Notes under the pieces: model-generated | Told to the model about the DNA's origin: nothing | The model's database searches: none | The model's input: only the letters and a program-made list of their open reading frames with translations | Part shown: piece by piece, positions 1 through 29,902 of the stretch | Numbering within the stretch: position 1 is the stretch's first letter | How the letters are laid out: every line of letters starts with the position of its first letter | Made by a program: the position numbers and the translations under genes | From: an uncultured virus (IMG/VR IMGVR_UViG_3300013112_000606) | Taxonomy: Duplodnaviria > Heunggongvirae > Uroviricota > Caudoviricetes | Virus record (IMG/VR): IMGVR_UViG_3300013112_000606 | Length of the DNA: 64,000 nucleotides | Direction: 5' to 3' (one strand)

Positions 1-878
1 GGACACGAGGTCCGTCTCCTCCGCGGGTGAACCTTGGGTCAACCCACAGGACCTGGAGTCCCAGGTTCTGCACCCCGGAGAGGCTTTCCGCGGACCCTAC
101 GTCGGCATGCGGGTTCAATCCCTCGACAGAACCCCAGCCCATTCCGGGGTCCATACGATGTGCCGTGCTCCCGTACCTGGTGCCCGTGCCTCCCGCAGGG
201 GTCCAACCCTCCGGAGGGCCTCTGGGATGGTGGACCACGGGATCCACCGCCGCCACCATCTGTAGCTCCAGCCTACTGAGCCTCGAACCTCCGCCGTGGC
301 GCAGGGACCTACGAAGGGTCTGTCCCCGGGTCAAACGGCGGCACCAACACCCTGTCTGGCCCCCGCAGCGCTCGCCTGTGGCGGCCGCGGGGCGTCCTGG
401 ATGCTGGGAAAGCTGGCGGCCCCCGGGTTGCCCCAGGGACCGCGTGAGAGCGTGGGGGGTCGCCACGCAGACAGCACATGAGCTGGCCCCCGTTTCCAAG
501 CCTCCGGGAAACCGCCGGATCAGCTGAGGTGCATAGCGCTGAGGGTTCCGCCCTTCCGAGCAAGGCACCGCACAACACGGTTGCGCGCCCTCCTTGGCCC
601 ATCTCCAGCGACCACCGAACGCGTCTGCGTACCCGCGGAGGCACCAACGACAGGGCGGGTGGCCCTCGCCGCGAGGCCCCGTACCCATGGAGGTTCCCTG
701 GAACTTTCCGGCCGACGCGGAATCGAAGGATCCCACGATGGGCCACACTCTCTCCGCCGCCACAGCGACTTGGGCCGTGACTTCGGTCTGTCGCCTGGTG
801 GTCCGAGTGCCCCACCGATGGAACAGTCCAAGATTCCCACCGCGCAACGGGCCATCCAACGTGCTCCCACGGCACACA
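1..878 (-). ncRNA. candidate large structured non-coding RNA (may continue beyond window start)
   Basis: No ORF with the strong GC3 codon bias of neighbouring genes. Many hairpins (e.g. 416-443 with a GCAA loop on the minus strand, 361-392) and a long-range complement 159-167/868-876. Confidence 0.5.
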
Positions 879-901
879 CCCCCCGGAGTATCCGGGGGGG
901 G
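879..901 (-). terminator. GC hairpin just after the RAMP gene stop (terminator or processing site)
   Basis: CCCCCCGGA-gta-TCCGGGGGG inverted repeat; no U-tract. Confidence 0.4.
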
Positions 902-917
902 CGGCCGAGGGACGCTA

Positions 918-2378
918 CTACGCGGCCGGCTGCGTCGGCTCGGGCTCCGGGTCCTCCTTGAAGGAGTACCCGCCGTCGCCGTTGGTGGCACCGATCTCCT
1001 TGAGGTCGGTGTAGAGGGTGGCGTTGCTCGGGCGGTCCAGGCCCGTGCGGGACTCGAAGGCCTCCGCGATCTGGGCCACGGTCACGTGGCCGTTCTCGCG
1101 GATGTACTCCGACATCCACTCGCGCCGCATCTCGGGGGTCCACCGCCTGGTGTTCTCCCGGCGGCCCGACTCCAGCACGGCGGCCTTGACGTTCTTGGCC
1201 GCCTCCTCGACGTCCTCGACGGTGGTGATGGGCTGCGTCGAGGGCATCTGGACCCGCAGGGTGCTGGCGAGGAACGCCGCGTGCTCGGCGGCCAGCTCGC
1301 CACCCGCCATCTCCTCGATGGCGTCCATGTCGATGCCGTTGCCGAGCTCCTCGAAGTGGGTCAGCAGCATCTTGCCGACCGCGGCGCCCTTGGCCGGCGA
1401 CATGGAGCGGGCGTTGAGCAGCCCCATCTCCAGCGCGGCGCGCTTGAACTGGGCGGGCTCGATGCCGTTGGTCCGCGGGAAGCCCACGGTCATGGTGAAC
1501 GTCTCCAGGGGCTGGAGGGTCTCCATGGAGGACAGGCCCTTGCCGTCGCCGCCGACCTTGACCGGGTCCTCACCGATGATGGGGACCTGGTTGATGAGCA
1601 GCGGCTTGGTGGGGGTGATGTGGACGGTGGGTGCCGCCATCTTCTTCTGGAAGGCGGGCGACATGTTGAGGCGGGCCAGCAGCTGGCGGAGGAACCCGCG
1701 CACGATCTGGCTGTGGAGGGCGAGGCGGCCGTCGTGGCTGCGCAGGAAGTAGAGCATCCCGTGCCGCATCACGTCGATGTCCGTCTTGGACGGAGCCTTC
1801 TTGACCTTCCCCTCGCGCTTCAGGACCTGGCCGGCCGCCCGGCTGACCTCGGCGTCCTTGCACTTGAAGGGGGAGCGGGCGAGCATCTCGGCCAGGAAGG
1901 GGCTCAGCGGCCAGCCGCCGAACATGGGCTCGAGCGTCACGAACCACAGGCGCACGTAGTACATGTCCCGCGGCCAGCCCGGGTCCTTCTTCTTGCCGGT
2001 GTTCTCCAGGTGCTCCAGGACCTCGGCGACGACGACGGACCCATCGGACGCCATCACCGCCGCGATGATGTCCTTGTAGTGCGCGGTCTCCCGCGCCTTG
2101 CCGAGGTTGATGGCCTGCTCCATCGACCACACGGTCTTCTGCTGCAGGTCCTCCTCGCGCGACCGCTTGGCGATGATGCGCCGGCGGTACAGCGCGTCCA
2201 GGAACCCCTCGACGGTCCCCGGGGCGATGATGACGGAGACCCGCGTGCGGATGGCGTCGCAGATCTCCTTGGTGGTTGCCGTTCCGAGTGCCTGGATGAA
2301 GTACACGAGGAGGGCGGTGATCTCCTCGCGCTTGTCCTTGGCCAGGCGGACGGTGCTCGGCTTCTTCGGTCTGGGCAT
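918..2378 (-). CDS. wHTH + RAMP/Cas7-like domain + ArgR/DeoR-like wHTH fusion protein
   Basis: RAMP-like motifs YVRLWFVTLEPMFGG, FLRSHDGRLALHSQIVRGFLR, SMETLQPLETFTMTV and a degenerate G-loop PAKGAAVGKM. N-terminal wHTH (aa ~20-85). C-terminal SNATLYTDLKEIG resembles the ArgR HTH. Confidence 0.6.
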   Translation of the reverse strand: MPRPKKPSTVRLAKDKREEITALLVYFIQALGTATTKEICDAIRTRVSVIIAPGTVEGFLDALYRRRIIAKRSREEDLQQKTVWSMEQAINLGKARETAHYKDIIAAVMASDGSVVVAEVLEHLENTGKKKDPGWPRDMYYVRLWFVTLEPMFGGWPLSPFLAEMLARSPFKCKDAEVSRAAGQVLKREGKVKKAPSKTDIDVMRHGMLYFLRSHDGRLALHSQIVRGFLRQLLARLNMSPAFQKKMAAPTVHITPTKPLLINQVPIIGEDPVKVGGDGKGLSSMETLQPLETFTMTVGFPRTNGIEPAQFKRAALEMGLLNARSMSPAKGAAVGKMLLTHFEELGNGIDMDAIEEMAGGELAAEHAAFLASTLRVQMPSTQPITTVEDVEEAAKNVKAAVLESGRRENTRRWTPEMRREWMSEYIRENGHVTVAQIAEAFESRTGLDRPSNATLYTDLKEIGATNGDGGYSFKEDPEPEPTQPAA

Positions 2379-2412
2379 GTTGGCAGTCTCCTCTGCTCTA
2401 GGTGTTGAACCT

Positions 2413-2417
2413 CTTAT
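2413..2417 (-). promoter_or_regulatory. ATAAG phage promoter motif (first of 13 intergenic/gene-boundary copies; see findings)
   Basis: GCTATAAGAG on the minus strand upstream of the gene start at 2378. Confidence 0.65.
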
Positions 2418-2481
2418 AGCTGCGGGATCACTGCGTTTTCTGAGGGCTAATTGGAGGCGGCTGCGGCCTCCGAGCCCGGCG

Positions 2482-3117
2482 CTAGGCCGGTCTGTGGTCT
2501 CCGGTGAGCAGGAACTCGACCATGATGGCGGACTTCGCCTTCAGCGACGCCTTGTGGCTGAAGCCCCGCTGGATGGCGAGCTTGCGCAGGTCCATGCGGT
2601 TGAGCTTGCCGAGGTACTCCTCGCAGTACATGACCCCCCGGCACTCCATGCAGAGGTACGTCCCGCCCTTCTTCGACGGGGGGATCTGCCAGGTGCCGCA
2701 GTTCAGGCATCGGTGCTCCCCCGGCTGCCGGGGCGGCGGCTCGAAGTCCGCCTCCTCGTAGCCCGCAGGGATACCGTTGGGTGCCTCGAGGTACGCGAGG
2801 GGGACGGGGTGGGCCTTGGACATGGAGCTGAAGTAGTGCACCTGCCCATCGCGCATCCGGACTCCCGGGAAGCCACCCCTGCGGAGCATGTCGCGCGCCT
2901 CCGGGTTCCCCGGCTTGGTGCGGAGGTAGTCCCACGTGGTCCCGCCGGGCCCGTTCGCGGTGAACCCCATACCCTTGGCGACATCCCGGACGAGCCCGAG
3001 GGCCCCGGCCGGTCCCGCCTCCAGGTAGACGCAGGGCGTCAGGAGGACCCGTCGGTCCTCCGGGTAGGCGTGGGCGCCCTTGGTCAGGGGCACCCGTTTC
3101 CGAAGCCGAAGTCCCAT
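2482..3117 (-). CDS. hypothetical protein with Zn-ribbon (CLNC...CMEC)
   Basis: Codon bias, RBS GGAGG, two CxxC pairs. Confidence 0.75.
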   Translation of the reverse strand: MGLRLRKRVPLTKGAHAYPEDRRVLLTPCVYLEAGPAGALGLVRDVAKGMGFTANGPGGTTWDYLRTKPGNPEARDMLRRGGFPGVRMRDGQVHYFSSMSKAHPVPLAYLEAPNGIPAGYEEADFEPPPRQPGEHRCLNCGTWQIPPSKKGGTYLCMECRGVMYCEEYLGKLNRMDLRKLAIQRGFSHKASLKAKSAIMVEFLLTGDHRPA

Positions 3118-3123
3118 GTCCTC

Positions 3124-3474
3124 CTACATCTCGTCCTTGGTTGCCTCGCCGCCCAGCACGTGCGACGAGGTGAGCATCACCATGTGCCCTTCGACCAGCC
3201 CCCGGAGCTCCTGGGTGACCTGGGCGTGCTGGCCCACCAGCTTGTCGAAGCGCGCCTGCATCCCATCGCGCTTGTACGGCGGGAGCTCCTTCAGGTAGTC
3301 CACCATGCCGACGCAGATGGTCAGGCTGTACACCATCAGCGGCGCGATGGTGTCGTGCAGCAGGAGGAGCTCCTCCTTGCTGACGTCCTCCTGTGCGGTC
3401 AGGGTGTCCTGCACGCACATCAGTTGCCTCGTGGCCTCCTGGAGGCCCTTCAGCATCAACTTCCCGTCGTCCAT
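3124..3474 (-). CDS. hypothetical protein
   Basis: Codon bias, RBS GAGGAGG. Confidence 0.75.
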   Translation of the reverse strand: MDDGKLMLKGLQEATRQLMCVQDTLTAQEDVSKEELLLLHDTIAPLMVYSLTICVGMVDYLKELPPYKRDGMQARFDKLVGQHAQVTQELRGLVEGHMVMLTSSHVLGGEATKDEM

Positions 3475-3506
3475 ATCACGCCTCCTCTGCGTGGTTGTTG
3501 TAGGTA

Positions 3507-3690
3507 CTGTTCAGCGCGGCCGGGATACCCCACCGCCGACTCCCTCCGTTACTCACAGCCCGAAGGCCGGTCGCTCCATCCACATGGCAGCACAACTCTA
3601 TCGACGAGACCAGTGTTGGGGGTTGAGGATTGTGACTGGGGTCTCATGCGTCGATAGCACGCTGAACAGGCCGGACGTAGAGCCGCCCGG
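3507..3690 (-). ncRNA. structured leader or small RNA
   Basis: Closing stem 3507-3516/3660-3669, inner stem ~3596-3657; lies downstream of the ATAAG motif at 3700. Confidence 0.45.
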
Positions 3691-3754
3691 ACTGTATCTC
3701 TTATGCCACGATGGTCTGTCGCATTTCCGGATAATCAGCGACGGGGAGGGGGTT

Positions 3755-3782
3755 CGGTGCGGGGGCCGAAGCCCCCGCACCA
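3755..3782 (-). terminator. stem-loop after the 3818 gene
   Basis: GGTGCGGGGG...CCCCCGCACC with a cUUCGg loop on the minus strand. Confidence 0.55.
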
Positions 3783-3817
3783 GGCGAGGCAGAGGAGGGT
3801 CAGAACTCGCCCGAAGG

Positions 3818-4225
3818 TCAGTCGCTCAGGGCCTCGAGCTCCTTCTTGATGGCGTCCTCGTCCATGCCCTCGAGGGCGGCGTCCTGCTTGCGCTCCAGGG
3901 CGTCCATCAGCTTCTCGCGGCGCTTCGCGCGGTCGGCCCGCTGCTCAGCCTTCTCCTCCTCGGCGAGCTTGACCTCGATGACGTGCTTGACGATGTCGAG
4001 GCGGAGCTCGGCCACGGACTGCTTGGGGCTCCGGCGGGTGCGGACGAAGCTCTCCTCGCTCACCGCCTTGACCTCCCGGTTGGCGGCCTGGGCGACGGCA
4101 TCGAGGTCGAACCCGTTGCGCGAGCGCAGGGGGACGTCCCAGAGCATCTCGAGGGACAGCTGCCCCTTGCTGCTCTCGAAGCGGAGCTTCTGGCGGAGTG
4201 CGATGTCATACATGCTGGCGTTCAT
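3818..4225 (-). CDS. conserved phage hypothetical protein (coiled coil)
   Basis: KLRFESSKGQLSLEMLWDVPL...EESFV pattern typical of a phage family found beside the upstream gene. Confidence 0.8.
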   Translation of the reverse strand: MNASMYDIALRQKLRFESSKGQLSLEMLWDVPLRSRNGFDLDAVAQAANREVKAVSEESFVRTRRSPKQSVAELRLDIVKHVIEVKLAEEEKAEQRADRAKRREKLMDALERKQDAALEGMDEDAIKKELEALSD

Positions 4226-4237
4226 GGGTCTCTCCTT

Positions 4238-6316
4238 CTACGCGCCGAACCGGACCCGGTACAGGCGCTGGTTGTCGATCCTGACGATCACGGAGTCGGG
4301 CTTGGTCGACGAGAAGCCGAGGCCCGACAGCTGGCCCTCAGTGGGCTGGCACTTGGTCTTGTCCCCGATGACCTCGAACACCTTGCGGTGCGGGATCAGC
4401 CGAGGGTGCAGGAACTCGTTGTAGATGCCGCGGCAGGACTCGTCGTTCTTCGCGCCGTCGAGGACGAAGAGCGTGTGCTTGTTGCCCACAGCGTTGTCTC
4501 CCCAGTGGTTGGGGCTCAGGGTCACGAAGTTGACCTTCACGAACCTCTCGGACGTCAGGCCCCACTTCTCCTGCGCGGCCGTGCCGCACTCCATGTGGTG
4601 CTCGATGGTGAACTCGCCGTCCTTCAGAGTCACCGTGGCGACCGTCACCCACTCCTTGTGTTTGAGCGGCCGCTCCCGTTCGTAGGCGAACACCTGGCCG
4701 CCGAACTCGATCTCGGCCTGGAAGCCGCCTTCCGTGGGGGGCCGATGGGACCAGTTGTGGATCTTGCAGACGTACGTGCCCACAGGCATCCGCGCGATGT
4801 CGGGGAACGTGATGTTCTCGACGGGGATGTACCCCTTCGGTGCGGGGTCCGTGTAGTCCACGTCCTGGATGCCGCCGGACCGGGGGTGCTGTCGGTTGTT
4901 CCAGCCCACGCGCTCGTTGTTGCCGTAGCGGTCGTTGGTCGTTCCCGGCTTGGAGTACAGGATGGGGGATCCAGGCATGAAGACGTGGAGATCCATCAGA
5001 GAGGCGTTGCGCCTGTCGTGGTTCCACGAGTGGGAGAAGCGGAACGCTCCATCCACCCGACCACCTGCAGCGGACACTCGACGCCTCAGCTCCGAGTCGG
5101 CGAGGTTGCCGGCATAGGACCAGGCGAAGTCGTTGTCCCACTGGAACAGCTGGTTGGGCGCCGGGTGGACGGGAGCCGTCAAGGACATCAGGTTGCCCAG
5201 GTGGGCGGTCCTCAGCAGCACCTCCACGGCGGTAGCGTCGGTGAGCACGTCTGCCAGGAACTCGTCGATGGGGATGTCCTCGGCGCGCTTCTCGTCGAGG
5301 TCGTGACCCTGCGCCGCCTGGGCGTGGTCCATGAGCATGTCGCCGAGACCGCCGGCCATCAGCGGCTGGACCGTGTTGTCCACCCACAGCACGTCGTTGA
5401 CGCTGACGTCCTCGACGCGGGCGAACCGACGCTCCAGGGCGGGCTCCAAGCCCATCTCAGTGACCGTTTCCATGGCCGCCTTGACCATGCCGGGGGTGAT
5501 CACGGCCGTGGTGCGCTTGTAGTTCTCCGGCGCGACCTTGGTCTCGAACTTCTTGACCGCGAGCGTGAGGTCCGTTCCCTCGCTCAGGTCCTGGACCAGG
5601 GTGCCGATGGCGGTGTTGCGGAAGCGGGTGGCCGGGTCCTTGGCTCGCGCCCAGACGAAGAGGTCTCGGTCTTCGGCCTCGAGGTACAGCCGCTGGGCGG
5701 CCAGGAACCCCGCGACCTTCTCGCGGTGCTCCTCACCGCGGTAGAGGTTGTTGGCGTCGATCAGAGCCAGGACAGTCTCCAACGCCTCTGTGGTCAGCTC
5801 GTCCAGCCCGCGCTGGAAGACCTGAACGGTGGTGCGGTACTCGCCCTGGGCCTCGCCCGGGCTGGCCGCACGGAACTTCCGCGGGATGCTGCCCGTGTGG
5901 AAGTGGTTCCAGCGCTCGACCTGGTCGGACGGGCTCAGGCCGCGGGTCTTGGCGGACCCGATGCCGCTCTCCTTGACCCGGAAGACCCGGTCGATAGGCG
6001 CAGCGCGGACCAGCTCGGCCATGGCCTCGGCCACCACGTTGTGCGGGTAGGGAGCCTCGATTGCAGCCTTGTCCCAGACCGTGTGGCGCTCCTGGTCGAT
6101 GACCATGCCCACACGACGGATGAAGTGCTTGCAGTTGCTGCAGTCGTGCTCGGTGCGCTCCCGGAAGATGGGGTTGGTGCCATCGGGGAAGGAGTCCAGG
6201 TAGTGCCTGTACAGGTCGTCCCCGTCGATGTCGACGACGAAGAGGTCTCCCTTCGCCATCTTCTGGAACTGCTCGCGCACAGGCGCCGAGAACTGGTCGA
6301 AATCACTCATGGGCAA
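4238..6316 (-). CDS. conserved large phage protein (HDCxxCxxF motif; YfaP/DUF2135-like segment)
   Basis: 692 aa, strong codon bias, RTEHDCSNCKHFI and RFSHSW...MDLHV motifs. Confidence 0.8.
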   Translation of the reverse strand: MPMSDFDQFSAPVREQFQKMAKGDLFVVDIDGDDLYRHYLDSFPDGTNPIFRERTEHDCSNCKHFIRRVGMVIDQERHTVWDKAAIEAPYPHNVVAEAMAELVRAAPIDRVFRVKESGIGSAKTRGLSPSDQVERWNHFHTGSIPRKFRAASPGEAQGEYRTTVQVFQRGLDELTTEALETVLALIDANNLYRGEEHREKVAGFLAAQRLYLEAEDRDLFVWARAKDPATRFRNTAIGTLVQDLSEGTDLTLAVKKFETKVAPENYKRTTAVITPGMVKAAMETVTEMGLEPALERRFARVEDVSVNDVLWVDNTVQPLMAGGLGDMLMDHAQAAQGHDLDEKRAEDIPIDEFLADVLTDATAVEVLLRTAHLGNLMSLTAPVHPAPNQLFQWDNDFAWSYAGNLADSELRRRVSAAGGRVDGAFRFSHSWNHDRRNASLMDLHVFMPGSPILYSKPGTTNDRYGNNERVGWNNRQHPRSGGIQDVDYTDPAPKGYIPVENITFPDIARMPVGTYVCKIHNWSHRPPTEGGFQAEIEFGGQVFAYERERPLKHKEWVTVATVTLKDGEFTIEHHMECGTAAQEKWGLTSERFVKVNFVTLSPNHWGDNAVGNKHTLFVLDGAKNDESCRGIYNEFLHPRLIPHRKVFEVIGDKTKCQPTEGQLSGLGFSSTKPDSVIVRIDNQRLYRVRFGA

Positions 6317-6361
6317 AACTCCGTTGGTGGTGCGGGTTGTGGTTGTAGAGGAGGCAGCAGT

Positions 6362-6799
6362 TGGTGGAGGCGGTGGGAGTCGAACCCACGTCCTGACTGT
6401 GCTCAGGAGAGGCGTCTACGGGAGTAGTCGTCGCTTCAATTCCAGACCAGCTTGAGCGTCGACCGAATGGGCTGGTCAGGTGGTTCCGTCTACTGGGTCT
6501 GCCCTGGCCGGCGGTTTCCGTTCACGCCAGGGTCCGTCCTCAGATGAACACGCCCTGCAGGTGGTCAGAGGCAACACCCTCCTGCAGCACGACGGCCGTC
6601 AAGCGACCGCGAGAACCTCCATCGGGGTGGAGGCGGCCGGGGCGGGGAGATGGGTCATCTCGTCCGCCACGGTGCCCAGGCACCAGATGGGGGCACCCAC
6701 CGTGTCATCGGTGGCATTTGACAGTTGCTCCTGTAGGCCAGAGCACGCCTTCCCGCAACCTCTCCAGTGTTGCACGCCAGTCGAAACCGTTTCGCCCCC
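6362..6799 (-). ncRNA. ssrA: tmRNA
   Basis: 5' GGGGGCGAAACGGTTTCGAC; 3' GGGTTCGACTCCCACCGCCTCCACCA; acceptor stem with the G3:U Ala determinant; internal tag frame 6715-6599 ending LAVA-stop. Confidence 0.95.
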
Positions 6800-6974
6800 A
6801 GAGGGGCCCGGCCGGGTAACTACTCCGGCCGGGCCCCCAACCACACTGCCAACGTGGTACGTACTGGATACGTAGGTTCCTGGGGCTACCAGAAGTACTT
6901 ATAGCCTGCAAGCGGAATCTTTTACCGCTACGGAATGGGCGCGCAGAGCGCGCCCGACACCCCGGACGGGGTGC

Positions 6975-8369
6975 CTATCGTGGGTCGGCCTCGAGGGCGA
7001 TGGCGAGGAGCTTGGTCTTGTCGGTCTCGCCGTCGAGCTGGGCCTCGTACGCGGCCTGCAGCATCGGGCCGAAGTGCTGGCCACCGGGGATCCCCTCGGC
7101 GATGAGGTCCTTGCCCTCGAGGACCTTGGCGATGGGCTCCGGGCCCAGCTCCTCGAAGAAGCGCCAGGCGTACTCGGAGGGCTTGTGGTCCTCCATGACG
7201 ACCACCTCGATGCCCGGCCGCATCCTGGAGGCGAGACCGTCGCAGCGGGAGAACCATCCCGCGACGTCGAGGCGGTACTTGTTGTGCAGGCGTCGCCACA
7301 TGGGGTGGGGCCGCTTCACCGTCTGCATCGCGAACGAGAGGTTGCTCACGTTCATGTGCTGCCGGGTGATGGTGACCACCTGCTGGGTCAGCTCCTTCTG
7401 GTTCGTGAGCCGCCCCATGAAGGCCCTGGCGGGGTCCTCACCGGCCTTGTCGTGGCCGTGGGCCTTCAGCTCCTCGTCGGTGACCAGGGGCTTGCCCATG
7501 TCGTGGCACAGCGCGCCGAACATGAACCCCTCGTGCCACTCCTCGGGGAGCTCGGGCAGCTCCTTCCGCTGGCCGCGGATGGCCCAGGCCGCGGCGTCGA
7601 CCACCCGCAGGGTGTGCTCCCACACGTCCCCCTCCGGGTGCCACTGCGGGTTCTGCTCGCACCCGATGAGCGAGCCGAGCTCGGGGAACACCTCGAGCCC
7701 GCCGATGGCCAGCAGGAACCGGAGCCCCTGGCTGGGCTGCTCGGCCAGCATCAGCAGCTTGCGCCACTCCTCGTAGAGCCGCTCGCGCGGGAGGGTGCGG
7801 AGCAGGGGGACCAGCTGAGCGCACAGCGCCTCGGTCTGGTACTCCACCATCTCACACTTGCGCGCCAGGAGCTGAGCGCCGCGGAGCGCGCGGATGGGGT
7901 CCTCCACGAAGGTCACCGGGTCGGTGGCCCGCAACAGCCCGTTCTGGACGTCCTTGAGGCCGTCGAAGTGGTCGCCCACCGTGTCGGTCTCCGGGTCGTA
8001 GAACATGCTGTTGATGGAGAAGTCCCGCCGGCGCGCGGCCTCCAGCGGGGTCATCGTGGGGTCCAGGGTGACCTGGTCCTTGATCCCCGCGAAGTTCGTC
8101 AGGCGGGGAACCGACACGTCGATGTCGATGCTCTTGATCCCCCGGAGCTTCACGATGCCGAACGCCTTGCCCACCTCCACCGGGCGGTACTCCTCCACGG
8201 CTCGAGTCAGGTCGGACATCGAGAGGCCGTATACCTCGATGTCCCAGTCTTTGGGGTCTCTGCCCATCAACAGGTCTGCCACCGCGCCCCCCACCAGCAG
8301 CGGCTTGCCACTGGCGGCGCGGATGACACTCATGACCTGCAAGAGCTTGTTGGGAAGATCGAATCGCAC
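6975..8369 (-). CDS. cca: CCA-adding tRNA nucleotidyltransferase with HD domain
   Basis: LVGGAVAD...KDWDIEV, RRDFSINSM, EDPIRALRG, WHPEGDVWEHT, HDMGKP. GTG start after a GAGGAGG RBS. Confidence 0.92.
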   Translation of the reverse strand: MRFDLPNKLLQVMSVIRAASGKPLLVGGAVADLLMGRDPKDWDIEVYGLSMSDLTRAVEEYRPVEVGKAFGIVKLRGIKSIDIDVSVPRLTNFAGIKDQVTLDPTMTPLEAARRRDFSINSMFYDPETDTVGDHFDGLKDVQNGLLRATDPVTFVEDPIRALRGAQLLARKCEMVEYQTEALCAQLVPLLRTLPRERLYEEWRKLLMLAEQPSQGLRFLLAIGGLEVFPELGSLIGCEQNPQWHPEGDVWEHTLRVVDAAAWAIRGQRKELPELPEEWHEGFMFGALCHDMGKPLVTDEELKAHGHDKAGEDPARAFMGRLTNQKELTQQVVTITRQHMNVSNLSFAMQTVKRPHPMWRRLHNKYRLDVAGWFSRCDGLASRMRPGIEVVVMEDHKPSEYAWRFFEELGPEPIAKVLEGKDLIAEGIPGGQHFGPMLQAAYEAQLDGETDKTKLLAIALEADPR

Positions 8370-8567
8370 TCTTCCTCCTCTGTTGCTCCTCTTATACCCA
8401 GGCACCTGTGCGGATGTTCAGGGGTAAAGAACCCGTTGCGGGTTCAGTCGTCCCCCTTCGACGGGGGTACAGCTCTCCATGGTCGCGGGGCGGCGGCTAT
8501 GGTGCGGAGAGCCGCGGGACCCCGGCGGCGGCTGCCGGAGGGTCAGGTTGTGGTGGGCGCGGGGGCG

Positions 8568-9164
8568 CTAGCTGCGGGGGCCGACGCGGACGCGGTTGCG
8601 GTGGAACCAGACGGAGTCCGCCCACTGCTCGGGCGTGTAGGTGCCGCCCTCGGGGGCGGTGCCGCCGGGCAGCTCCTTCTGGTTCCGCGCCATCGTCACC
8701 GGGTGCATGGGCTCCTCGCCTGGCGTCAGCTGCGTGTTCAGCGACACCAGGTAGAACTCGTGCTCGCCGATCCGCTCGTCCTTCCCCGGCTCACCCGTAG
8801 CCGGGTGCGGCTGGGGCTCCAGCAGCGCGGACGGGTAGAAGACGGCGTAGGCCCAGTCGCACTCGGCCTTCTCGCCCTCCATCTCGTCGAGGGGGATGGT
8901 GTCCTCCCCCTTGGTCCCCGTGCGCTCGCCGAAGCCGCGCTCGTAGGACTCGCCGGCCTGCATCTCCCGGTAGACGCTGCGGAAGCGGCCGGGGGCGCAC
9001 AGCTCGACGACCATGGCGTCCGGGTTGAAGCTGGAGGGCTGACGGTTCCCCCAGTTCTCGGTGCACAGGACGAGCAGCTCCTCGAAGCTGCCGTCGAAGT
9101 CACCGAAGGGCTGGGCGGGGACGTGACGTCCCGCCGCGTAGTGGGTGTTACCCAAAATACTCAT
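8568..9164 (-). CDS. hypothetical protein (possibly DUF3228-like)
   Basis: Codon bias, RBS, EPMHPVTMARN...GGT motif. Confidence 0.7.
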   Translation of the reverse strand: MSILGNTHYAAGRHVPAQPFGDFDGSFEELLVLCTENWGNRQPSSFNPDAMVVELCAPGRFRSVYREMQAGESYERGFGERTGTKGEDTIPLDEMEGEKAECDWAYAVFYPSALLEPQPHPATGEPGKDERIGEHEFYLVSLNTQLTPGEEPMHPVTMARNQKELPGGTAPEGGTYTPEQWADSVWFHRNRVRVGPRS

Positions 9165-9290
9165 GTGGCCTTCCTCCTCTGTTTGATGACCGAGGTGGCC
9201 TTTCCTCGGTCATAATTCTTATCCCCGGACGCCCCCCAGAAGTTGCACCTAATGGAGCGCGGGGGCTCCTGGGTGACGCCCCGGACGGGG

Positions 9291-10157
9291 CTAGTGGTTC
9301 TCCTCGAGGGGGGAGACAGCCAGCTCGGCCAGCTCGAGGATCTGGGGGAGGGGGAGCCGCTCCTTGGTCTTGCCGATGAAGCCGCCCACGTGGACGAACT
9401 CCATGTCGGCGCGGCCGTGGAGCACGGTGAAGTCGACGGCGGGGTGGTTGTCGAAGCGGTACAGGCTCCAGCCGGGGCCCCGGTCGGGGTCGTCGTAGCT
9501 GATGCTCATCCCGATCACCTCGTCGTGCGCCTCCATCCACTCGTCCCGCATGATCTCGGAGGCCGCGGGGTGCGCGTTGGCCAGGTGCACCAGCGTCGGC
9601 AGCCCCTTGACCCGCAGGACCTGTGAGCACCCCTTGAGCTCCGTCAGGTGGGTGTGTACGGTCCTGGCCCACTCGATGTGGTCCTCGGCCACGGTGCGCA
9701 GGATGCGGCAGAAGAACGTGGGGACGGGGGTGTCCCCGGAGAACTCCTCCAGGATGCGCAGCGGCGTGGTCTCGAACGGCGAGATCATGCCGGGGTGGAG
9801 CTTCGGGACCTCGAAGTGCTTGGCCAGCGCTGCGGGGCCCTTGCTGTCGAGGATGGCCACCGCGTCGTACCACGCCAGGCCGGCGAGCGCCTCGGACAGC
9901 CCGAAGTACTCCGCCACCAGGGTCATGGCGCAGGTGGGCGGGTGGTCCGCCGGGAACTGGTGGTGGTCGAAGTTGTGCAGCTCCGGGTGGTGCTGCTCGC
10001 CGACGTCGACCACCCAGACGTCGGGGTCGGCCAGGTCCGCCGGGGTGGGATTCCGGCGGAAGACCTGGGCGGAGGTGGGCTTCTTCTCCGCCAAGATGAG
10101 GCCAACCGCGAGGGCCTCATCCCGGTGAGCACGGCCCGGGTGCGTGATGATCTTCAT
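9291..10157 (-). CDS. MYG1-family metal-dependent nuclease/hydrolase
   Basis: IITHPGRAHRDE, VDVG, FDHHQ and FVHVGGFIG motifs. Confidence 0.85.
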   Translation of the reverse strand: MKIITHPGRAHRDEALAVGLILAEKKPTSAQVFRRNPTPADLADPDVWVVDVGEQHHPELHNFDHHQFPADHPPTCAMTLVAEYFGLSEALAGLAWYDAVAILDSKGPAALAKHFEVPKLHPGMISPFETTPLRILEEFSGDTPVPTFFCRILRTVAEDHIEWARTVHTHLTELKGCSQVLRVKGLPTLVHLANAHPAASEIMRDEWMEAHDEVIGMSISYDDPDRGPGWSLYRFDNHPAVDFTVLHGRADMEFVHVGGFIGKTKERLPLPQILELAELAVSPLEENH

Positions 10158-10263
10158 CGAGATCACCTCCTTTCGAGTCTCTTATGACTGAAGACGGGTG
10201 GCGGCTTTCGATCTGACAGCTAACGATGCCCCGGCCGAAGCCGGGGCGGGCCGCCGGGGCGGC

Positions 10264-10785
10264 CTAGTCGTTGCCGAACTGCTCGTGCTCCTCCATCTGC
10301 GCCTGGAGGGAGCCGATGTCCGCGGAGAGTTCGACGAGCTTCTCCTCGATGGGGGTGAGCGTGTCGGGGTCGTAGCCTCCCGGACGGGGCAGGTCCGAGA
10401 TGGCCGAGTCCACCAGCTCATCGACACGTGCCTTGAGCACGTCCGTCATCTCCTCGATGGTCCGGTGGAGCTCGGCGTTCCCGGTCTGCCGCGCGGTGGT
10501 GAGGCGGTACATCTCCTCCTCGTGGCGGTTGGCCTCCGCCGTCGCCGCCAGATCGTCCTGCGCCTTCTGGGACTCGACGTCCGCGGCGACGTGCGCCTTG
10601 GAGGTCTCCGCCGCCAGGCCGATACCGAAGTCCAGCAGGGTCGTCAGGATCTTGTTGAGCCCCTTGCCGAACCCCACGAGCTCCTCGTGGCGTGCCTGAC
10701 GCTCGGCCGCCAGCTCCTGGGTGTACTTCTCCACGAAGGAGTGGAGATCGTCACGCGAGAGCGTGACTGCGTTGGTGTCTTCCAT
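10264..10785 (-). CDS. hypothetical coiled-coil protein
   Basis: Codon bias, RBS, ATAAG motif upstream. Confidence 0.75.
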   Translation of the reverse strand: MEDTNAVTLSRDDLHSFVEKYTQELAAERQARHEELVGFGKGLNKILTTLLDFGIGLAAETSKAHVAADVESQKAQDDLAATAEANRHEEEMYRLTTARQTGNAELHRTIEEMTDVLKARVDELVDSAISDLPRPGGYDPDTLTPIEEKLVELSADIGSLQAQMEEHEQFGND

Positions 10786-10995
10786 GGGATGTTCCTCCTC
10801 TGGTTGATGGCAGGAGTCCCAGTCCTGCCACAGCTCTTATGCCGATTGGAGGTAACAGACTTGCCTGAAATGGAGACGGGGCGCGGTTGCCCGCGCCCCG
10901 TCTGAGGGGGAGACCCACACAGCCCGGAAGGGCACAGAGGAGGGGAGTCTCCCGACCAATACTCACGCGCTCCTACGCGAGTGTCAACGGATTTA

Positions 10996-11024
10996 TTGAC
11001 AGTGCGACAGACTGTCGCTACCCT
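10996..11024 (+). promoter_or_regulatory. sigma70-type promoter with palindromic operator in the spacer
   Basis: TTGACA-17-TACCCT; the spacer contains GCGACAG-A-CTGTCGC. Confidence 0.65.
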
Positions 11025-11041
11025 GAAGGTAGGAGAAGTCG

Positions 11042-11290
11042 ATGAGTACCGAGACGACCGGGTCGCAGCGAGAGCTGCTCGGCCGGCTGCTGCAGCTGGA
11101 CGAGGAGATCCGCGGCCGTCTCATCTGGAGCCAGGTCCAGGGAGACTCCGACGCCAAGGGTCGGAAGGCCGTGGAGCAACTCCGCGTTCAGCGGCATCGG
11201 CTGGAGAACGAGCTCATGCGTGCACGCCAGGACTCCCCCGTCCCCCTCCCGAGCCGGGAGGGAGACATGGAGTTCCTGCTGACCGCGTGA
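11042..11290 (+). CDS. hypothetical protein
   Basis: RBS AGGAG, promoter upstream. Confidence 0.7.
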   Translation: MSTETTGSQRELLGRLLQLDEEIRGRLIWSQVQGDSDAKGRKAVEQLRVQRHRLENELMRARQDSPVPLPSREGDMEFLLTA

Positions 11291-11297
11291 GCGTGAG

Positions 11298-11465
11298 CTA
11301 GAGGGGCAGCTCCGTCTGGGAGCGCTCCTCCTCGTACCCACACTGCGGGCAGACCAGGATGACCCGCTTGGGGGCCTTGCGGCCCTTCAGGACCATCTCC
11401 TGATCGCAGCTGGGGCACTTGATGCCCACTTCGTCATCAGATCTGTTGACACGTCTCAGCTCCAT
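11298..11465 (-). CDS. small Zn-ribbon protein
   Basis: CPSC...CPQC, RBS GAGGAGG, ATAAG motif at 11487. Confidence 0.7.
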   Translation of the reverse strand: MELRRVNRSDDEVGIKCPSCDQEMVLKGRKAPKRVILVCPQCGYEEERSQTELPL

Positions 11466-11558
11466 CGTGGTATCCTCCTCACTGCTCTTATGCCACAAAG
11501 ACAGCCCCCTTCTTCTGGTATCCGCGTCCTCCACTTCGCGAGGACCCGCGGCCCCCAC

Positions 11559-12662
11559 ATGCGGCTGCTCCGCAGCATCGTCAAGAACGAGCCGTACAAC
11601 GAGCACGTCTTCGCCCCCAGGGCCAACGACGCGCTCCGGATGGGCCTGATCGGCAAGAACGCCATCGGGGTCACGAACCGCTCCCTCACCCGCCACCGGC
11701 GGGTCCAGATGGAGAGCGCCTACATCGGCCGGACGGTCCGGTTGCAGAACCCCGACCTCGTGGTCTTCCACACGCCCACGCAGGACGAGGCGATGGCTCG
11801 CATCGCTGTCGGTGCGCTCCACGGGACGCGCCAGCGGATGATGACGTACAGGTACGACGCCCGCCCGGTCCAGCGTGGAGCCCTCCGGCGCATCGTCCTG
11901 TCCCGCATCAGCATGTGGGTCGTCCCGACGGCCCCGGCCGGCCGTGTCCTCGAGGCCGCTGGCATCGACCGTGAGCGCATCCGGGTGCTCCGGCCCCCCG
12001 TGCGGCGCCCGCGTACTATCGAGAGGGACAAGGCACGCAGGCGCCTGAACATCCCCACGGGGAAGCCCGTGGTGACGGTGTCGTCTCCGTCCCCCGACGA
12101 GGCGGAGCTCCTGGTGCCCACGCTGGAGCTGATGCAGGACTACGAGCAGGGGTACACGCTGGTCGTGTCCGACGCCAACGAGACGGTGCTGACCACGGTG
12201 GCGCCGCTGGTGGCCGCGTCTCAGGGCCAGGCCGTGCTCGTGCAGACCAACGAGCCCGAGCTGACCTCCCTCCAGCCCACGCTGCCCGCCCCCGTCGCCC
12301 TCGACCGCGGCGAGCTGCTGGCGTCAGCATCTGACGCGGCCCTGGTCCTGGACTGGGACCAGTCAGTCCCGCAGACGGCCATCGAGATCGCGATGGGCGG
12401 CCGGGAGATCCTGACGGTTCGGACCGAGGAGAGCGAGGAGGCCACGGGAGGCACGGCCACGTTCATCCAGGCGGACACCCCCGCCCAGGTAGCCTCCTCC
12501 CTGACGTCCTACGCCCCCGACCCGGCCAAGGGCCAGGGAGCCGCGGTCTTCGTGCGCCAGGAGTACGACGAGGACTCGAGGACCAAGGAACACCGCCAGG
12601 TACACCTGGACACCCTCCCCATTCGCGCCCGCCAGCGGGGAGATGCGGTTCCGGCCGCGTAG
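11559..12662 (+). CDS. GT-B (GT4-like) glycosyltransferase, divergent
   Basis: ERIRVL, ARRRLNIP, LASASDA, IEIAMGGREIL resemble the GT4 C-terminal motifs; start codon uncertain. Confidence 0.55.
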   Translation: MRLLRSIVKNEPYNEHVFAPRANDALRMGLIGKNAIGVTNRSLTRHRRVQMESAYIGRTVRLQNPDLVVFHTPTQDEAMARIAVGALHGTRQRMMTYRYDARPVQRGALRRIVLSRISMWVVPTAPAGRVLEAAGIDRERIRVLRPPVRRPRTIERDKARRRLNIPTGKPVVTVSSPSPDEAELLVPTLELMQDYEQGYTLVVSDANETVLTTVAPLVAASQGQAVLVQTNEPELTSLQPTLPAPVALDRGELLASASDAALVLDWDQSVPQTAIEIAMGGREILTVRTEESEEATGGTATFIQADTPAQVASSLTSYAPDPAKGQGAAVFVRQEYDEDSRTKEHRQVHLDTLPIRARQRGDAVPAA

Positions 12663-22724: not shown

Positions 22725-23364
22725 GAAGTTCCCGATGCCCGCCACCGTCGACGAGGTGGCCGAGGCAGTCAGGAAGATCCTCTCCCTCGGGGGAGTCGAG
22801 CACCTGTCGTTGAACCTCGGGGAGCAGATCTACGTCGAGCGGCGCAAGGACGTCCGCGACACCGCGCTCCCCGACGATCCCGCCTTCGCCGAGTTCACCC
22901 TCGACGACATGATCACCCGGGTCGCCCTGGGGGAGTACACCCCGCCAAACGACAGTCTGTCGCCGACGGCGCAGATGTTCGAGATGATGGCCCTGGTCGG
23001 GACCGGCGGCTACGTCGTCACCCACGTCCTGTGCTACGACAAGATCAACCTCCGGCGCTGGCTGGGCATGGAGGGGGTCCTCCCAGACGACTACCGCCTG
23101 CTCAACGCCCACGTCGTCGAGTCCCGGATGATGAGCCCCGACGCCGTCATCGTATTCGGTAGCCACAGGTCCGGCGCGGCCCCCTCCGACGTGAAGGTGG
23201 CCCTCAAGCTGACCGTAGGAGCCACCCATGTGCGAGAGGAACCGAGTCATCCAGCTCCTGCTCCAGAACAACATCATCCCGGCGGACACAGTCCGTTTCC
23301 TGCAGACGAGGGGGATGCTCCCCAGGGAGATGGCGCTCCCCCCTGGTTCGGCCCCGCCGACTGA
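22702..23364 (+). CDS. hypothetical protein
   Basis: Codon bias. Confidence 0.7.
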   Translation: MPEVRVSEKFPMPATVDEVAEAVRKILSLGGVEHLSLNLGEQIYVERRKDVRDTALPDDPAFAEFTLDDMITRVALGEYTPPNDSLSPTAQMFEMMALVGTGGYVVTHVLCYDKINLRRWLGMEGVLPDDYRLLNAHVVESRMMSPDAVIVFGSHRSGAAPSDVKVALKLTVGATHVREEPSHPAPAPEQHHPGGHSPFPADEGDAPQGDGAPPWFGPAD

Positions 23365-27761: not shown

Positions 27762-27816
27762 TCGCCGCCCCCGTACGCCCGAACCCCGGGTAGCCGGGGG
27801 CGGGAGAAGTGCGTGT

Positions 27817-27901
27817 GGGAGAGTGGCGGAATTGGTAGACGCGCGGGTTTCAGGGGCTCGTGTCTTCGGGCGTGAGGGTTCGACTCCCTCCTCTCCTACC
27901 A
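27817..27901 (+). tRNA. trnL: tRNA-Leu(CAG)
   Basis: Cloverleaf, long variable arm, CCA. Confidence 0.9.
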
Positions 27902-27905
27902 CCGT

Positions 27906-27990
27906 GCCAGGGTGGCGGAATTGGTAGACGCGCAGGCTTGAGGGGCTTGTGTCTTCGGGCGTCCGGGTTCGACTCCCGGTCCTGGTACCA
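27906..27990 (+). tRNA. trnL: tRNA-Leu(GAG)
   Basis: Cloverleaf, CCA. Confidence 0.9.
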
Positions 27991-28003
27991 ACAAGAAGAC
28001 CGT

Positions 28004-28081
28004 GTGGGTGTAGCTCAGCTAGCGGAGAGCACCAGCCTTCCAAGCTGGATGTCGGGGGTTCGATTCCCCCTACCCACACCA
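28004..28081 (+). tRNA. trnG: tRNA-Gly(TCC)
   Basis: Cloverleaf, CCA. Confidence 0.92.
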
Positions 28082-28083
28082 GT

Positions 28084-28160
28084 GTGGATGTAGCTCAGAT
28101 GGCTAGAGCGCCGGGTTGCCAATCCGGAGGCCGTGGGTTCGAGACCCACCTTCCACACCA
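28084..28160 (+). tRNA. trnG: tRNA-Gly(GCC)
   Basis: Cloverleaf, CCA. Confidence 0.9.
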
Positions 28161-28167
28161 GATACGT

Positions 28168-28257
28168 GGGAGTCTGGCGGAAATGGTAGACGCACCCGGC
28201 TCAAGATCGGGCGTCCCGAGAGGGCACTTCAGGGTTCGACCCCCTGGGCTCCTACCA
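28168..28257 (+). tRNA. trnL: tRNA-Leu(CAA)
   Basis: Cloverleaf, long variable arm, CCA. Confidence 0.9.
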
Positions 28258-28262
28258 GGTGG

Positions 28263-28338
28263 TGGCGTGTAGTTCAACTGGCGGAACGGCTGACTCTGGA
28301 TCAGCAGGTTGGAGGTTCGAGTCCTCCCACGCCAGCCA
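28263..28338 (+). tRNA. trnQ: tRNA-Gln(CTG)
   Basis: Cloverleaf, CCA. Confidence 0.92.
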
Positions 28339-28343
28339 CACCT

Positions 28344-28419
28344 GGGGGCGTAGTTCAACTGGTGGAACACCGGGCTTTGGTCCCGGACGTTGGAGGTTCG
28401 AGCCCTCCCGCCCCTTCCA
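28344..28419 (+). tRNA. trnQ: tRNA-Gln(TTG)
   Basis: Cloverleaf, CCA. Confidence 0.92.
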
Positions 28420-28451
28420 CTCCTACTCGCGCCTGTGCTACAGTCTCATTT

Positions 28452-28528
28452 CGCGGGATGGACAAGTCCGGTAAGTCGCTGGGCTCATAACCCGGAGATC
28501 GGTGGTTCAAATCCACCTCCCGCTACCA
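28452..28528 (+). tRNA. trnM: tRNA-fMet(CAT), initiator
   Basis: Unpaired C1, GGG/CCC pairs in the anticodon stem, CCA. Confidence 0.9.
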
Positions 28529-28734
28529 GATTCATCCCCCAGGGCATGACCCTGGGGCACCAGCAGCCCACGGGCTGAGGGTAACCGCCGGAGGGGCGGG
28601 TGAGGCAGAGCCGGGGCGCCCCGGCCTGCCACCCTCTACGGAGGACCGATGCTGAGCCTCAGCGCCAGCGCAGTGGTCGCCATCTAGCTCCCCGGTTCGG
28701 GGAGCGACTCCCTACATCTGTATCTGCATCGCAC

Positions 28735-28811
28735 GGGCCGCGTAGCTCAGCTGGGAGAGCGTCTGGTTTGCACCCAGAAGGTCCCGGGTTCGATCCCCGG
28801 CCGGTCCACCA
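28735..28811 (+). tRNA. trnA: tRNA-Ala(TGC)
   Basis: G3:U70, one bulged base in the acceptor stem, CCA. Confidence 0.88.
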
Positions 28812-28814
28812 CGT

Positions 28815-28891
28815 ACCTCGGTAGCTCAGCCAGGGAGAGCAAACGCCTTACAAGCGAGAGGTCGGGGGTTCGATTCCCTCCCGGGGTACCA
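28815..28891 (+). tRNA. trnV: tRNA-Val(TAC)
   Basis: Cloverleaf with two mismatches at the top of the anticodon stem, CCA. Confidence 0.8.
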
Positions 28892-28933
28892 CTTTCCAAT
28901 CCCATGCAAACCGTGATTTCATGGGGGTATGGG

Positions 28934-29715: not shown

Positions 29716-29811
29716 GCTCGTCCGCATGTGGAAGCGAACTCCCACACCTACGCCAATTATCTAGCCGGCCGGTCGGTCGGCTCCCCCATGCCCAAAACTG
29801 AATAGTTCCGT

Positions 29812-29898: not shown

Positions 29899-29902
29899 CC
29901 TG

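Follow-up and report, generated by a model that had tools for sequence, protein, structure and literature searches.

What does a Cas7-like protein do when it is encoded by a virus, away from any CRISPR locus, and joined in one chain to two DNA-binding domains? The question is raised by a gene on the minus strand, at 918..2378, of a 64,000-nucleotide (nt) stretch of DNA from an uncultured virus of the Caudoviricetes (IMG/VR record IMGVR_UViG_3300013112_000606); the whole of this stretch is called the window here. The product of the gene, P0001, was modelled with the help of its metagenomic relatives and compared with known structures and with VIPR, a phage system built on a stand-alone RAMP protein. 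The predicted structure places a Cas7-like RAMP core between two winged helices, and the P0001 family is a new and well-supported variant of the phage stand-alone RAMP theme, in which the RAMP is fused to a winged helix-turn-helix (wHTH). P0001 is probably a new fused relative of the phage RNA-guided DNA silencers.

Cas7-like core and winged helices of P0001

The gene and the predicted parts of its product, with positions in amino acids (aa), are as follows.

918..2378, minus strand: wHTH-RAMP-wHTH gene encoding P0001, 486 aa in 486 codons (open reading frame list and translation; 63 homologues at E ≤ 1e-3)
1992..2342, minus strand: N-terminal PadR/IscR-type winged helix-turn-helix, aa 13-129 (VIA Z 9.8 to the IscR-DNA structure 4hf1_A)
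1227..1973, minus strand: Cas7-type RAMP core, aa 136-384 (AlphaFold2 model, Foldseek and VIA)
1515..1598, minus strand: thumb-like beta-hairpin, aa 261-288, tip GEDPVKVGGD (DSSP of the model; near-invariant P266 and invariant E286)
1371..1418, minus strand: Gly-rich loop, aa 321-336, SMSPAKGAAVGK in P0001 (model; family consensus RGxSPARGxxxG)
942..1154, minus strand: C-terminal winged helix, aa 409-479 (VIA Z 7.8-7.9 to the winged-helix (WH) domains 8uuc, 2od5, 4yii, 4kmf and 3w6k)

The open reading frame (ORF) at 918..2378 is a real gene. Its codon-position GC content of 0.63/0.44/0.98 (positions 1/2/3) is clearly that of coding DNA, a GAGGAG resembling a ribosome-binding site lies 9 nt before the ATG, and homologues are found; because of these three lines of evidence its coding nature is regarded as confirmed. 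The window DNA has a GC content of 66-69%, and its genes have a third-position GC of 0.8-1.0. The stop codon of P0001 is the TAG at 918-920, and a second TAG comes after it.

The AlphaFold2 model was made with a family alignment of 52 sequences, the query and 51 relatives, as input, and reached a mean pLDDT of 88.0 and a pTM of 0.60. Twelve of the 63 relatives were dropped from the alignment by eye: six that were short or fragmentary (P0006, P0016, P0022, P0051, P0053 and P0058) and six whose length was atypical or whose matches were patchy (P0035, P0037, P0047, P0054, P0055 and P0061). The elements of the RAMP core in the model are aa 139-148, 223-236, 261-288, 293-301, 308-320, 321-336 and 337-346. 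The first of these is beta1, which is followed by G154-G155. A strand with F211-x-R213...G217 then leads to helix-1 of the RNA-recognition motif (RRM), aa 223-236 (QIVRGFLRQLLARL), and a long beta-hairpin (261-268/279-288) that carries E286 is followed by the strand 293-301. The loop 321-336 (SMSPAKGAAVGK) precedes the last strand, 337-346. Between these elements the core also holds a helical insert, aa 170-210, which varies between lineages.

Comparison with solved structures gave a consistent assignment of the core. Foldseek returned 120 matches in the PDB at E ≤ 0.001; the 50 that were listed are all CRISPR RAMP effectors, and Cas7-11/gRAMP, Csm3, type VII Cas7 and Cmr stand among the matches listed with E of 1.5e-7 to 1e-5. 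By VIA the core (aa ~136-384) reached Z 11.9 to 8s9u_D (root-mean-square deviation (rmsd) 5.4, 169 residues aligned), Z 11.5 to the Cmr chain 6s6b_I, Z 11.5 to the type VII Cas7 8z4j_F (161 aligned of 193 residues) and Z 11.4 to the Csm3 chain 5yjd_B (rmsd 3.5, 148/182 residues). A search independent of Foldseek covered 48,161 representative PDB chains, with 43 chains at Z of at least 8. Among its 50 listed matches, all 24 that fell on the core are CRISPR RAMPs (Z up to 11.5), and they span Cmr4, Csm3, Csm5, Cas7-11, Csf2, Cmr6 and the Cas7 proteins of types VII, I-A, I-B, I-D, I-E, I-F and IV-A. Among viral structures the core comes closest to stand-alone viral RAMPs with lengths of about 190-300 aa. 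The best BFVD match is A0A8S5R426, a 194-aa 'RAMP superfamily protein' (E 6.7e-8, TM 0.64), and three ESM-Atlas clusters (213-303 aa, 89-100% viral) align to the core at TM 0.46-0.68.

The flanking domains were identified in the same searches. The N-terminal domain (aa 15-129) matched the IscR-DNA chain 4hf1_A with rmsd 2.2 over 82 aligned residues, and PadR, Pex and MarR chains followed at VIA Z 8-9. In the search of 48,161 chains, 20 of the 21 listed matches to aa ~1-134 are wHTH regulators or DNA-binding domains (IscR, PadR, Pex, MarR, Fur), the single exception being the mitoribosome assembly chain 7aoi_XS. A long helix, aa 387-412, leads into the C-terminal winged helix; five of the 50 listed matches fell on aa ~409-485, and all five are winged-helix or putative nucleic-acid-binding domains.

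At the level of sequence the similarities are weak. The best PDB sequence match of the family profile is Csm5 9g9a_H (E 0.0063, borderline), over the residues 'F-R-D-G...I...V-x-G-x-l-R' that precede and form helix-1, and PadR chains matched the N-terminal domain at E 0.0066-0.2. In Pfam, P0001 gave Penicillinase_R at E 0.054, below its cut-off, TnsA_C at E 0.0014 and HTH_DeoR at E 0.11, while the relative P0005 gave Arg_repressor at E 7.8e-4. No curated RAMP family was matched in Pfam (E ≤ 1 for P0001, E ≤ 0.01 for the 52 members) or PADLOC, and neither P0001 nor its family had a match above the cut-offs in Pfam, PHROGs or PADLOC.

A phmmer search with P0001 found 63 metagenomic relatives at E ≤ 1e-3, of which 27 reached E ≤ 1e-10 and four E ≤ 1e-30. 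Most members have 340-420 aa and match aa ~5-350, which corresponds to the wHTH and the RAMP core, and the N-terminal wHTH is present in nearly all of them. Besides P0001, just four relatives showed the C-terminal helix and winged helix: P0003 (77% identical), P0004, P0005 and P0006, which is a fragment. Neither RAMP-only relatives (30-182 aa) nor long relatives of 945-2695 aa were found, the latter being weak evidence. Pairwise identity within the family is only ~20-30%, and its members occur in phages of 52-69% GC. In the 52-sequence alignment E286, P301 and G335 are invariant, and G154, R213, P266, S327, P328, R330 (K in P0001) and G331 are conserved in at least 90% of the sequences. Conservation is thus centred on the RNA-facing elements of a RAMP, namely the G-loop SPARG...G, helix-1 and the thumb. 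The wHTH helix 53-65 also has a consensus across the family, TLxxxLEALxxR.

The sequence-only reading had described a Cas7/RAMP-like protein with ordered RAMP signatures between two wHTH domains, and this description was borne out. The model and three independent structure searches agree on it, the four features named from sequence fall on matching AlphaFold2 elements and on conserved family positions, and both winged helices were confirmed by structure, with weak Pfam matches in the same direction. The AlphaFold and Foldseek check of the core, which had been proposed with it, returned an RRM/RAMP fold that matches CRISPR RAMPs. Because the named sequence elements coincide with the model elements and with the most conserved columns of the family, we regard the observation and its structural reading, a predicted Cas7-like RAMP core flanked by two winged helices, as confirmed.

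The family was found only in large uncultured phages. Homologues were located on IMG/VR contigs of 68-172 kb, four of which (L001, L002, L003 and L009) serve for comparison below. Viral contigs scanned with P0001 alone yielded no homologous locus, and neither did two scans of metagenome contigs. With four members as queries (P0001, the L001 protein, P0013 and P0033), tblastn found no match in 50,697 GenBank phage records, and megablast of window positions 1-12000 against GenBank phages also gave none. When the ORFs of window positions 1-22000 and of L001, L002 and L009 were compared all against all by BLASTP, the RAMP gene was the only gene common to the window and the other loci; it linked the window to L001 and to L009, and L001, L002 and L009 among themselves, without a match between the window and L002. 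One study of marine metagenomes has four runs with near-identical window DNA (0.86-0.93 of the sampled words), and ~39% of the sampled words were present in one run of a second study. The six public runs that were listed include none of RNA. Metagenome contigs aligned to 1-3500 include a near-identical strain with 3 differences in 1865 nt over 662-2526, a second near-identical strain with 5 differences and 1 indel over 1-575, and a relative of ~84% identity that covers parts of the P0001 gene.

A predicted filament and its likeness to Cas7 and VIPR

The fold raises the question of whether the protein would assemble as Cas7 does. Three copies of aa 133-390, predicted with the family alignment, gave an ipSAE of 0.75 (runs 0.76, 0.73 and 0.75), compared with 0.00 for the best control. 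In the calibration of this score, 20 of 30 proteins whose solved structure is a one-chain pair attained the mark, as did 1 of 23 whose solved structure is a single chain. The trimer runs agreed in at least 86% of contacts, with a partner pLDDT of at least 82. The predicted interface is heterologous: aa 261-266, 282-291 (thumb), the helix 307-323 and the G-loop region 332-342 of one subunit face aa 156-164, 203-227, 245-251 and 348-381 of the next, so that the thumb-like hairpin 261-288 is part of the predicted subunit-subunit contact. The second surface is made up of the loop after beta1, the beginning of helix-1 and the C-terminal helices. The predicted geometry is that of an open, Cas7-like polymer with head-to-tail packing.

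Known Cas7 proteins resemble the P0001 core to different degrees. The best whole-core matches are the type III and type VII proteins (Csm3, Cmr4, type VII Cas7 and the domains of Cas7-11), with Z 10-11.9 over 75-85% of the target chains. The helix-1 motif of Csm5 aligns with the family profile, and the predicted head-to-tail packing of the P0001 core involves the thumb, as in Cas7. On the other hand, P0001 has no cas operon, CRISPR array or curated RAMP model match, and its winged-helix fusions are not a feature of type III/VII Cas7 proteins. The ribonucleases Csm3 and Cmr4 carry a catalytic Asp in the loop after beta1, whereas the P0001 family has no conserved Asp for cleavage of target RNA: Asp is absent from the invariant and at least 90% conserved columns of the 52-sequence alignment, and the loop after beta1 reads GxQPxSP. 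The core also matches the type IV protein Csf2 (7jhy, Z 9.9; 8rc3 and 8rc2, Z 9.0-9.3). Type IV-B Csf2 filaments have been reported to assemble on heterogeneous non-CRISPR RNA and to be without nuclease (PMC7937560, 10.1101/2020.07.31.231399), and they are thus a precedent for Cas7 filaments without CRISPR RNA (crRNA). Csf2 acts with Cas11 and Csf1, which are encoded next to it, but no such neighbours were found near P0001.

The closest functional comparison is VIPR. It is described as a phage system of a stand-alone RAMP, Vipr (~20 kDa), with vrRNAs and accessory Vap proteins, several of which are WH/HTH DNA binders; the vrRNAs consist of 9-16 YNNGG repeats with a structured tail and are encoded in long intergenic flanks (10.64898/2026.04.26.720920). 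Vipr is reported to polymerise with one protomer per repeat, and the complex to bind double-stranded DNA and repress transcription (10.64898/2026.04.26.720920, 10.64898/2026.04.26.720927, 10.64898/2026.10.15.759431). The VIPR preprints, four in the set including 10.64898/2026.10.21.760802, also speak of non-canonical XYZNN repeats. The system was reported only in 2026; the preprints propose that it is older than CRISPR and relies on a new RNA code, and it comprises seven types.

P0001 is similar to Vipr in several respects. Both are phage-encoded RAMPs with an RRM core, a thumb and a G-loop, and both lie outside CRISPR loci. Both loci are minimal, of the stand-alone or two-gene kind, with a long non-coding flank and a DNA-binding WH/HTH partner. 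The expected logic would also be the same, with RAMP protomers that polymerise on RNA in a complex that binds and represses DNA. They differ in size: Vipr is a single domain of ~195 aa, whereas the proteins of the P0001 family have 340-486 aa and join the RAMP to one winged helix or two, and the core of P0001 has the helical insert at aa 170-210, unlike Vipr. Natural Vipr fusions are not mentioned in the main texts of the VIPR preprints, which refer only to 'synthetic Vipr fusions', types I and III-VII being detailed in their supplements. By analogy, P0001 would be a fused (cis) counterpart of the VIPR pair of Vipr and Vap. In the literature searched on Cas7/RAMP proteins with a winged-helix, PadR or HTH fusion, or as stand-alone phage proteins, no such fusion was found described.

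From these comparisons a mechanism can be proposed. A phage promoter of the ATAAGAG class, described below, would drive expression of the protein. Its RAMP cores would stack head-to-tail on an RNA, as in Cas7 and Vipr, and the winged helices of every subunit would grip double-stranded DNA. The resulting RNA-protein filament would then occupy and repress DNA, be it that of a competing mobile element, that of the host or the phage's own programme. We infer RNA binding, DNA binding and repression by P0001. That P0001 is such an RNA-loaded, DNA-tethered filament acting as a repressor is in our judgement a little short of an even prospect, and it is the most likely mechanism because of the predicted self-association and the conservation on RNA-facing elements.

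Search for the RNA

If P0001 uses an RNA, where could it be encoded? The sequence-only reading had suggested the DNA just downstream of the gene, where two features were found.

879..899, minus strand: GC-rich hairpin with a 9-bp stem and a 3-nt loop (seen in sequence; inverted-repeat arm 881-898)
1..878, no strand assigned: non-coding stretch downstream of P0001 (no codon-phase GC bias; runs off the window edge)

The hairpin lies 19 nt past the P0001 stop codon. No U-tract follows it and the terminator scan did not call it; it is the likely transcript end of the P0001 gene. The stretch 1-878 is unusually long for a non-coding stretch in this genome, and it extends beyond the left window edge by 403 nt or more, as a metagenome contig of 979 nt covers window positions 1-575 from its own position 404. 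The non-coding flank thus has a total of at least 1.28 kb (878 nt in the window and 403 nt beyond). The flank is a candidate for the place where an RNA partner is encoded.

The strongest period-6 signal of the window in the Fourier analysis, C on the plus strand (G on the minus strand) at ~96-170, lies in this flank; it was not confirmed against shuffles by the column-conservation scan. The gaps after the homologues measure 374 nt in L002 (L002:11099-11472) and 319 nt in L009 (L009:11192-11510). Both gaps are G-rich on the gene strand (in L009, G 40% and C 20%) and have GGATGG/ATGGGAC-like words in common. A scan for periods 4-7 in the gaps beside the L001, L002 and L009 homologues gave nothing significant, the best being period 4 in L009 with p ~0.07. 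The flanks of the compared loci have no common k-mer of 10 nt, and the metagenome contigs over 1-3500 include no alignable diverged copy of the flank.

VIPR-type arrays were sought with Escherichia phage SUSP1 as positive control, in which the YNNGG scan recovered the arrays at 29170-29229 and 27802-27949; these flank the 195-aa vipr and 146-aa vap1 genes. No YNNGG run of four or more units was found in the window or L001. One four-unit run is present in L002 (15392-15411), ~4 kb from the homologue and not adjoining it; in L009 only the gap downstream of the homologue was scanned for repeats. A general period-5 scan ('three fixed, two free') scored the SUSP1 arrays at 20-23, compared with a shuffled maximum of 18.

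Several results weigh against the RNA-loaded filament. In none of the 64-kb window, L001 and L002 did the period-5 scan detect, outside coding DNA, an array that scored higher than shuffled sequence. The flank had no Rfam match (window at the gathering threshold; positions 1-2500 at E ≤ 1) and, over 1-917, no repeat of period 4-12 by column-conservation scan, nor did it give a period-5 signal in the Fourier analysis. Its fold z-scores of -1.9 (minus strand) and -3.5 (plus strand), from 20 shuffles each, are weak, and the better one is on the strand opposite the gene. In L001 no more than 56 nt follow the homologue, so that a long flank is not general in the family. In all, the scans of the flank and the loci found no RNA partner of P0001. 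The comparison of proteins points the same way: when the family was compared by hhalign with five type II Viprs, E was 0.15 and the alignment misregistered, in a superfamily whose members are often without detectable sequence similarity, and with four Vap1-like proteins E was 0.34 and 0.098; no homology to either was detected. The residues of SUSP1 Vipr that read GGY are reported as H17, R138, D177, W178 and R179 (10.64898/2026.04.26.720927); by inspection, there being no reliable residue alignment, the family G-loop SPARG (RGxSPARGxxxG) has no D-W-R, in contrast to the GDWRPRFG of SUSP1-type Vipr. In addition, the prediction of self-association may come from likeness to Cas7 filaments already solved, which the predictor may have learnt, and ordinary one-component regulators, too, are as a rule built from a wHTH and a sensor domain.

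The two suggestions about RNA in the sequence-only reading accordingly fared differently in their parts. An RNA-scaffolded or RNA-guided DNA binder is plausible, given the VIPR precedent as described in the preprints and the predicted head-to-tail polymer, but the RNA partner was not found. For an RNA encoded just downstream, the non-coding nature of 1 to ~878 held, but the flank showed no Rfam match and no repeat of period 4-12, and its stability exceeds that of shuffled sequence by a modest margin only. The comparison of homologue neighbourhoods, suggested as a check, went against it, as the downstream non-coding region is not conserved in position across the family.

P0001 thus shares its fold and biological niche with Vipr, yet it is not classed as a VIPR member because the test for a vrRNA array failed and the architecture differs. 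An RNA used by P0001 must differ from a pentanucleotide array of the GGYNN type; it could be a long or structured RNA from the flank of at least 1.28 kb, or follow a code with another period. It is a tentative and rather doubtful proposal that the family constitutes an undescribed class of phage RNA-guided or RNA-templated DNA-binding machines, in which a Vipr-like RAMP is fused in cis to its DNA-binding accessory domain and reads an RNA of non-GGYNN architecture. If it were true, nucleic-acid recognition by non-CRISPR RAMPs would be more diverse than the seven VIPR types. A second viral RAMP family, unrelated to VIPR in sequence, with a winged-helix fusion and no pentanucleotide arrays, would widen the picture of stand-alone RAMPs. 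It would represent either a further scheme of RNA-guided DNA recognition with a different guide or the first RAMP as a transcription-factor domain, and either outcome bears on the recruitment of RAMPs into CRISPR effectors. The P0001 family could also supply a compact natural fusion of a RAMP and a DNA binder for engineering.

Other functions and genomic surroundings

Could the protein be a regulator of a more ordinary kind? An ordinary one-component transcription factor, in which the PadR-type wHTH binds an operator as a dimer or oligomer and the RAMP is a sensor or oligomerisation module without guide function, would time phage gene expression; the RAMP might, for example, sense a particular phage or host RNA. 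We consider both the general form and this example unlikely, though they deserve attention. A wHTH with an effector domain is the commonest plan of a regulator, and the N-terminal domain of P0001 matches PadR, IscR and MarR: it has their fold (Z 8-9.8), and its profile resembles theirs weakly (E 0.0066). Ahead of the gene stands a promoter-like element of its own, whose class is common to eight other sites, the GCGACAGWCTGTCGC palindrome (6 copies compared with 0.04 expected) could be the operator of some HTH protein, and no repeat-type guide RNA was found. P0001 differs from these regulators, however, as it lies below the Pfam gathering thresholds and its partner domain is a RAMP, which was not found described in the literature searched as a partner of a PadR/IscR/MarR winged helix. 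The most conserved residues are moreover the RNA-facing RAMP elements and not a ligand pocket, the predicted self-interface is head-to-tail and not that of a two-fold dimer, and a helix 53-65 pattern kept across the family would seem unusual for regulators with different operators.

The promoter-like element of the gene is the following.

2411..2440, minus strand: ATAAGAG at 2411-2417 with a GAAA 19 nt upstream (motif count; GAAA by eye)

The ATAAGAG lies 33 nt upstream of the P0001 ATG. Its shorter form ATAAG had been taken for a promoter motif of the gene, and as a motif it proved real: ATAAGAG has nine copies in the window, all on the minus strand (2411, 3698, 8389, 10179, 10834, 11485, 43010, 43401 and 43828), where 0.97 were expected, and none of 100 shuffles reached nine. 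Each copy is upstream of a minus-strand gene or at its start, in most cases just upstream. A GAAA, GAAG or GAAC is usually seen by eye 15-20 nt upstream, with the strict GAAA in five of the nine. From its sequence and placement we consider ATAAGAG a candidate phage promoter-like class.

The absence of cas genes and of an array, noted earlier from the letters, was confirmed in the 64-kb window: the repeat and tandem-repeat finders gave no CRISPR array, and Cas models matched none of 57 ORFs in PADLOC or 56 ORFs in Pfam. The homologues in L001 and L002 also have no cas neighbours. In such a setting the protein could still act on the host's CRISPR system, and an anti-CRISPR decoy had been suggested, a Cas7 look-alike that enters or caps a class 1 effector complex of the host or soaks up crRNA. 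P0001 is phage-encoded, has a Cas7 fold and predicted Cas7-like subunit contacts, and appears among early-type genes, with rIIA and rIIB as neighbours in L001. The suggestion nevertheless gained no support and is improbable: there is no significant sequence similarity to any Cas7 of the host type (best profile E 0.006, to Csm5), the two DNA-binding domains have no role in a decoy, members that are ~20-30% identical and come from phages with a GC content of 52-69% do not follow any single host system, and no conserved acr/aca-like neighbours were seen.

The genes for translation RNAs in these phages suggest another function. The window is phage-like, with 31 tRNA genes at 27817-32667, a transfer-messenger RNA (tmRNA) at 6362-6799 (minus strand; Rfam 91 bits) and a CCA-adding tRNA nucleotidyltransferase with an HD domain at 6975-8405 (minus strand), and the neighbours of P0001 match the phage-only families phrog_1735 and phrog_2018. 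In the 137-kb IMG/VR phage contig L001 an array of 36 tRNAs (L001:864-9426) lies directly upstream of the family gene, and topoisomerase, ThyX, rIIA, rIIB and PARP-like genes come after the latter. An RNA-handling factor for the tRNA array and tmRNA, that is, a Cas6-like processing or chaperone RAMP tethered to transcribed DNA, would agree with a gene ~4 kb from the tmRNA and the CCA-adding enzyme and with a homologue that abuts a tRNA array. We consider this quite improbable, as no tRNA lies within 10 kb of the homologue in L002, L003 or L009, so that the tRNA association is not conserved. The fold also matches Cas7-type and not Cas6-type RAMPs, and the 52-sequence alignment holds no conserved His, Tyr or Asp as a catalytic candidate, with E286 as the sole exception.

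Least probable of all is a replication-origin or architectural DNA-binding protein that acts on the adjoining non-coding region with two winged helices, as plasmid Rep initiators do: the two WH domains, at least 1.28 kb of adjoining non-coding DNA and the minimum of the cumulative GC skew at the left end of the window speak for it, but 1-917 holds short imperfect repeats only, with no iterons or AT-rich unwinding element, and a second WH domain and a long flank are absent from most family members.

Some further features of the surrounding DNA were observed. The 211-aa upstream neighbour of the gene (2482-3117, minus strand) has a CxxC...CxxC zinc-ribbon-like motif and weak Pfam matches to zf-MYND, Prok-RING and MRNIP (E 0.05-0.16); it is not kept beside the homologues in L001, L002 and L009. 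The 340-nt gap at 3475-3817 (minus strand) holds a strong GC hairpin, then an ATAAGAG, then a 224-nt untranslated leader that precedes a 116-aa ORF at 3124-3474, and it could be a regulatory leader or a small RNA. In L001, the PARP-like protein near rIIA/rIIB (L001:18444-20072) has WGR, PARP regulatory and catalytic domains.

The palindrome GCGACAGWCTGTCGC has 15 bp, and its six copies with at most 1 mismatch are found at 11004-11018, 22949-22963, 34111-34125, 39341-39355, 54427-54441 and 60663-60677. Half-sites related to it lie inside two ATAAGAG promoter regions, those around 3698 and 43010. The palindrome may serve a dimeric DNA-binding protein as its operator, or it may be a modification or packaging signal. 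A radical-SAM protein with weak viperin/QueE-like matches is encoded at 37866-38531 (minus strand) and adjoins an SspD/PAPS-reductase-like protein at 38749-39783 (minus strand); the two may be nucleotide or DNA-modification genes.

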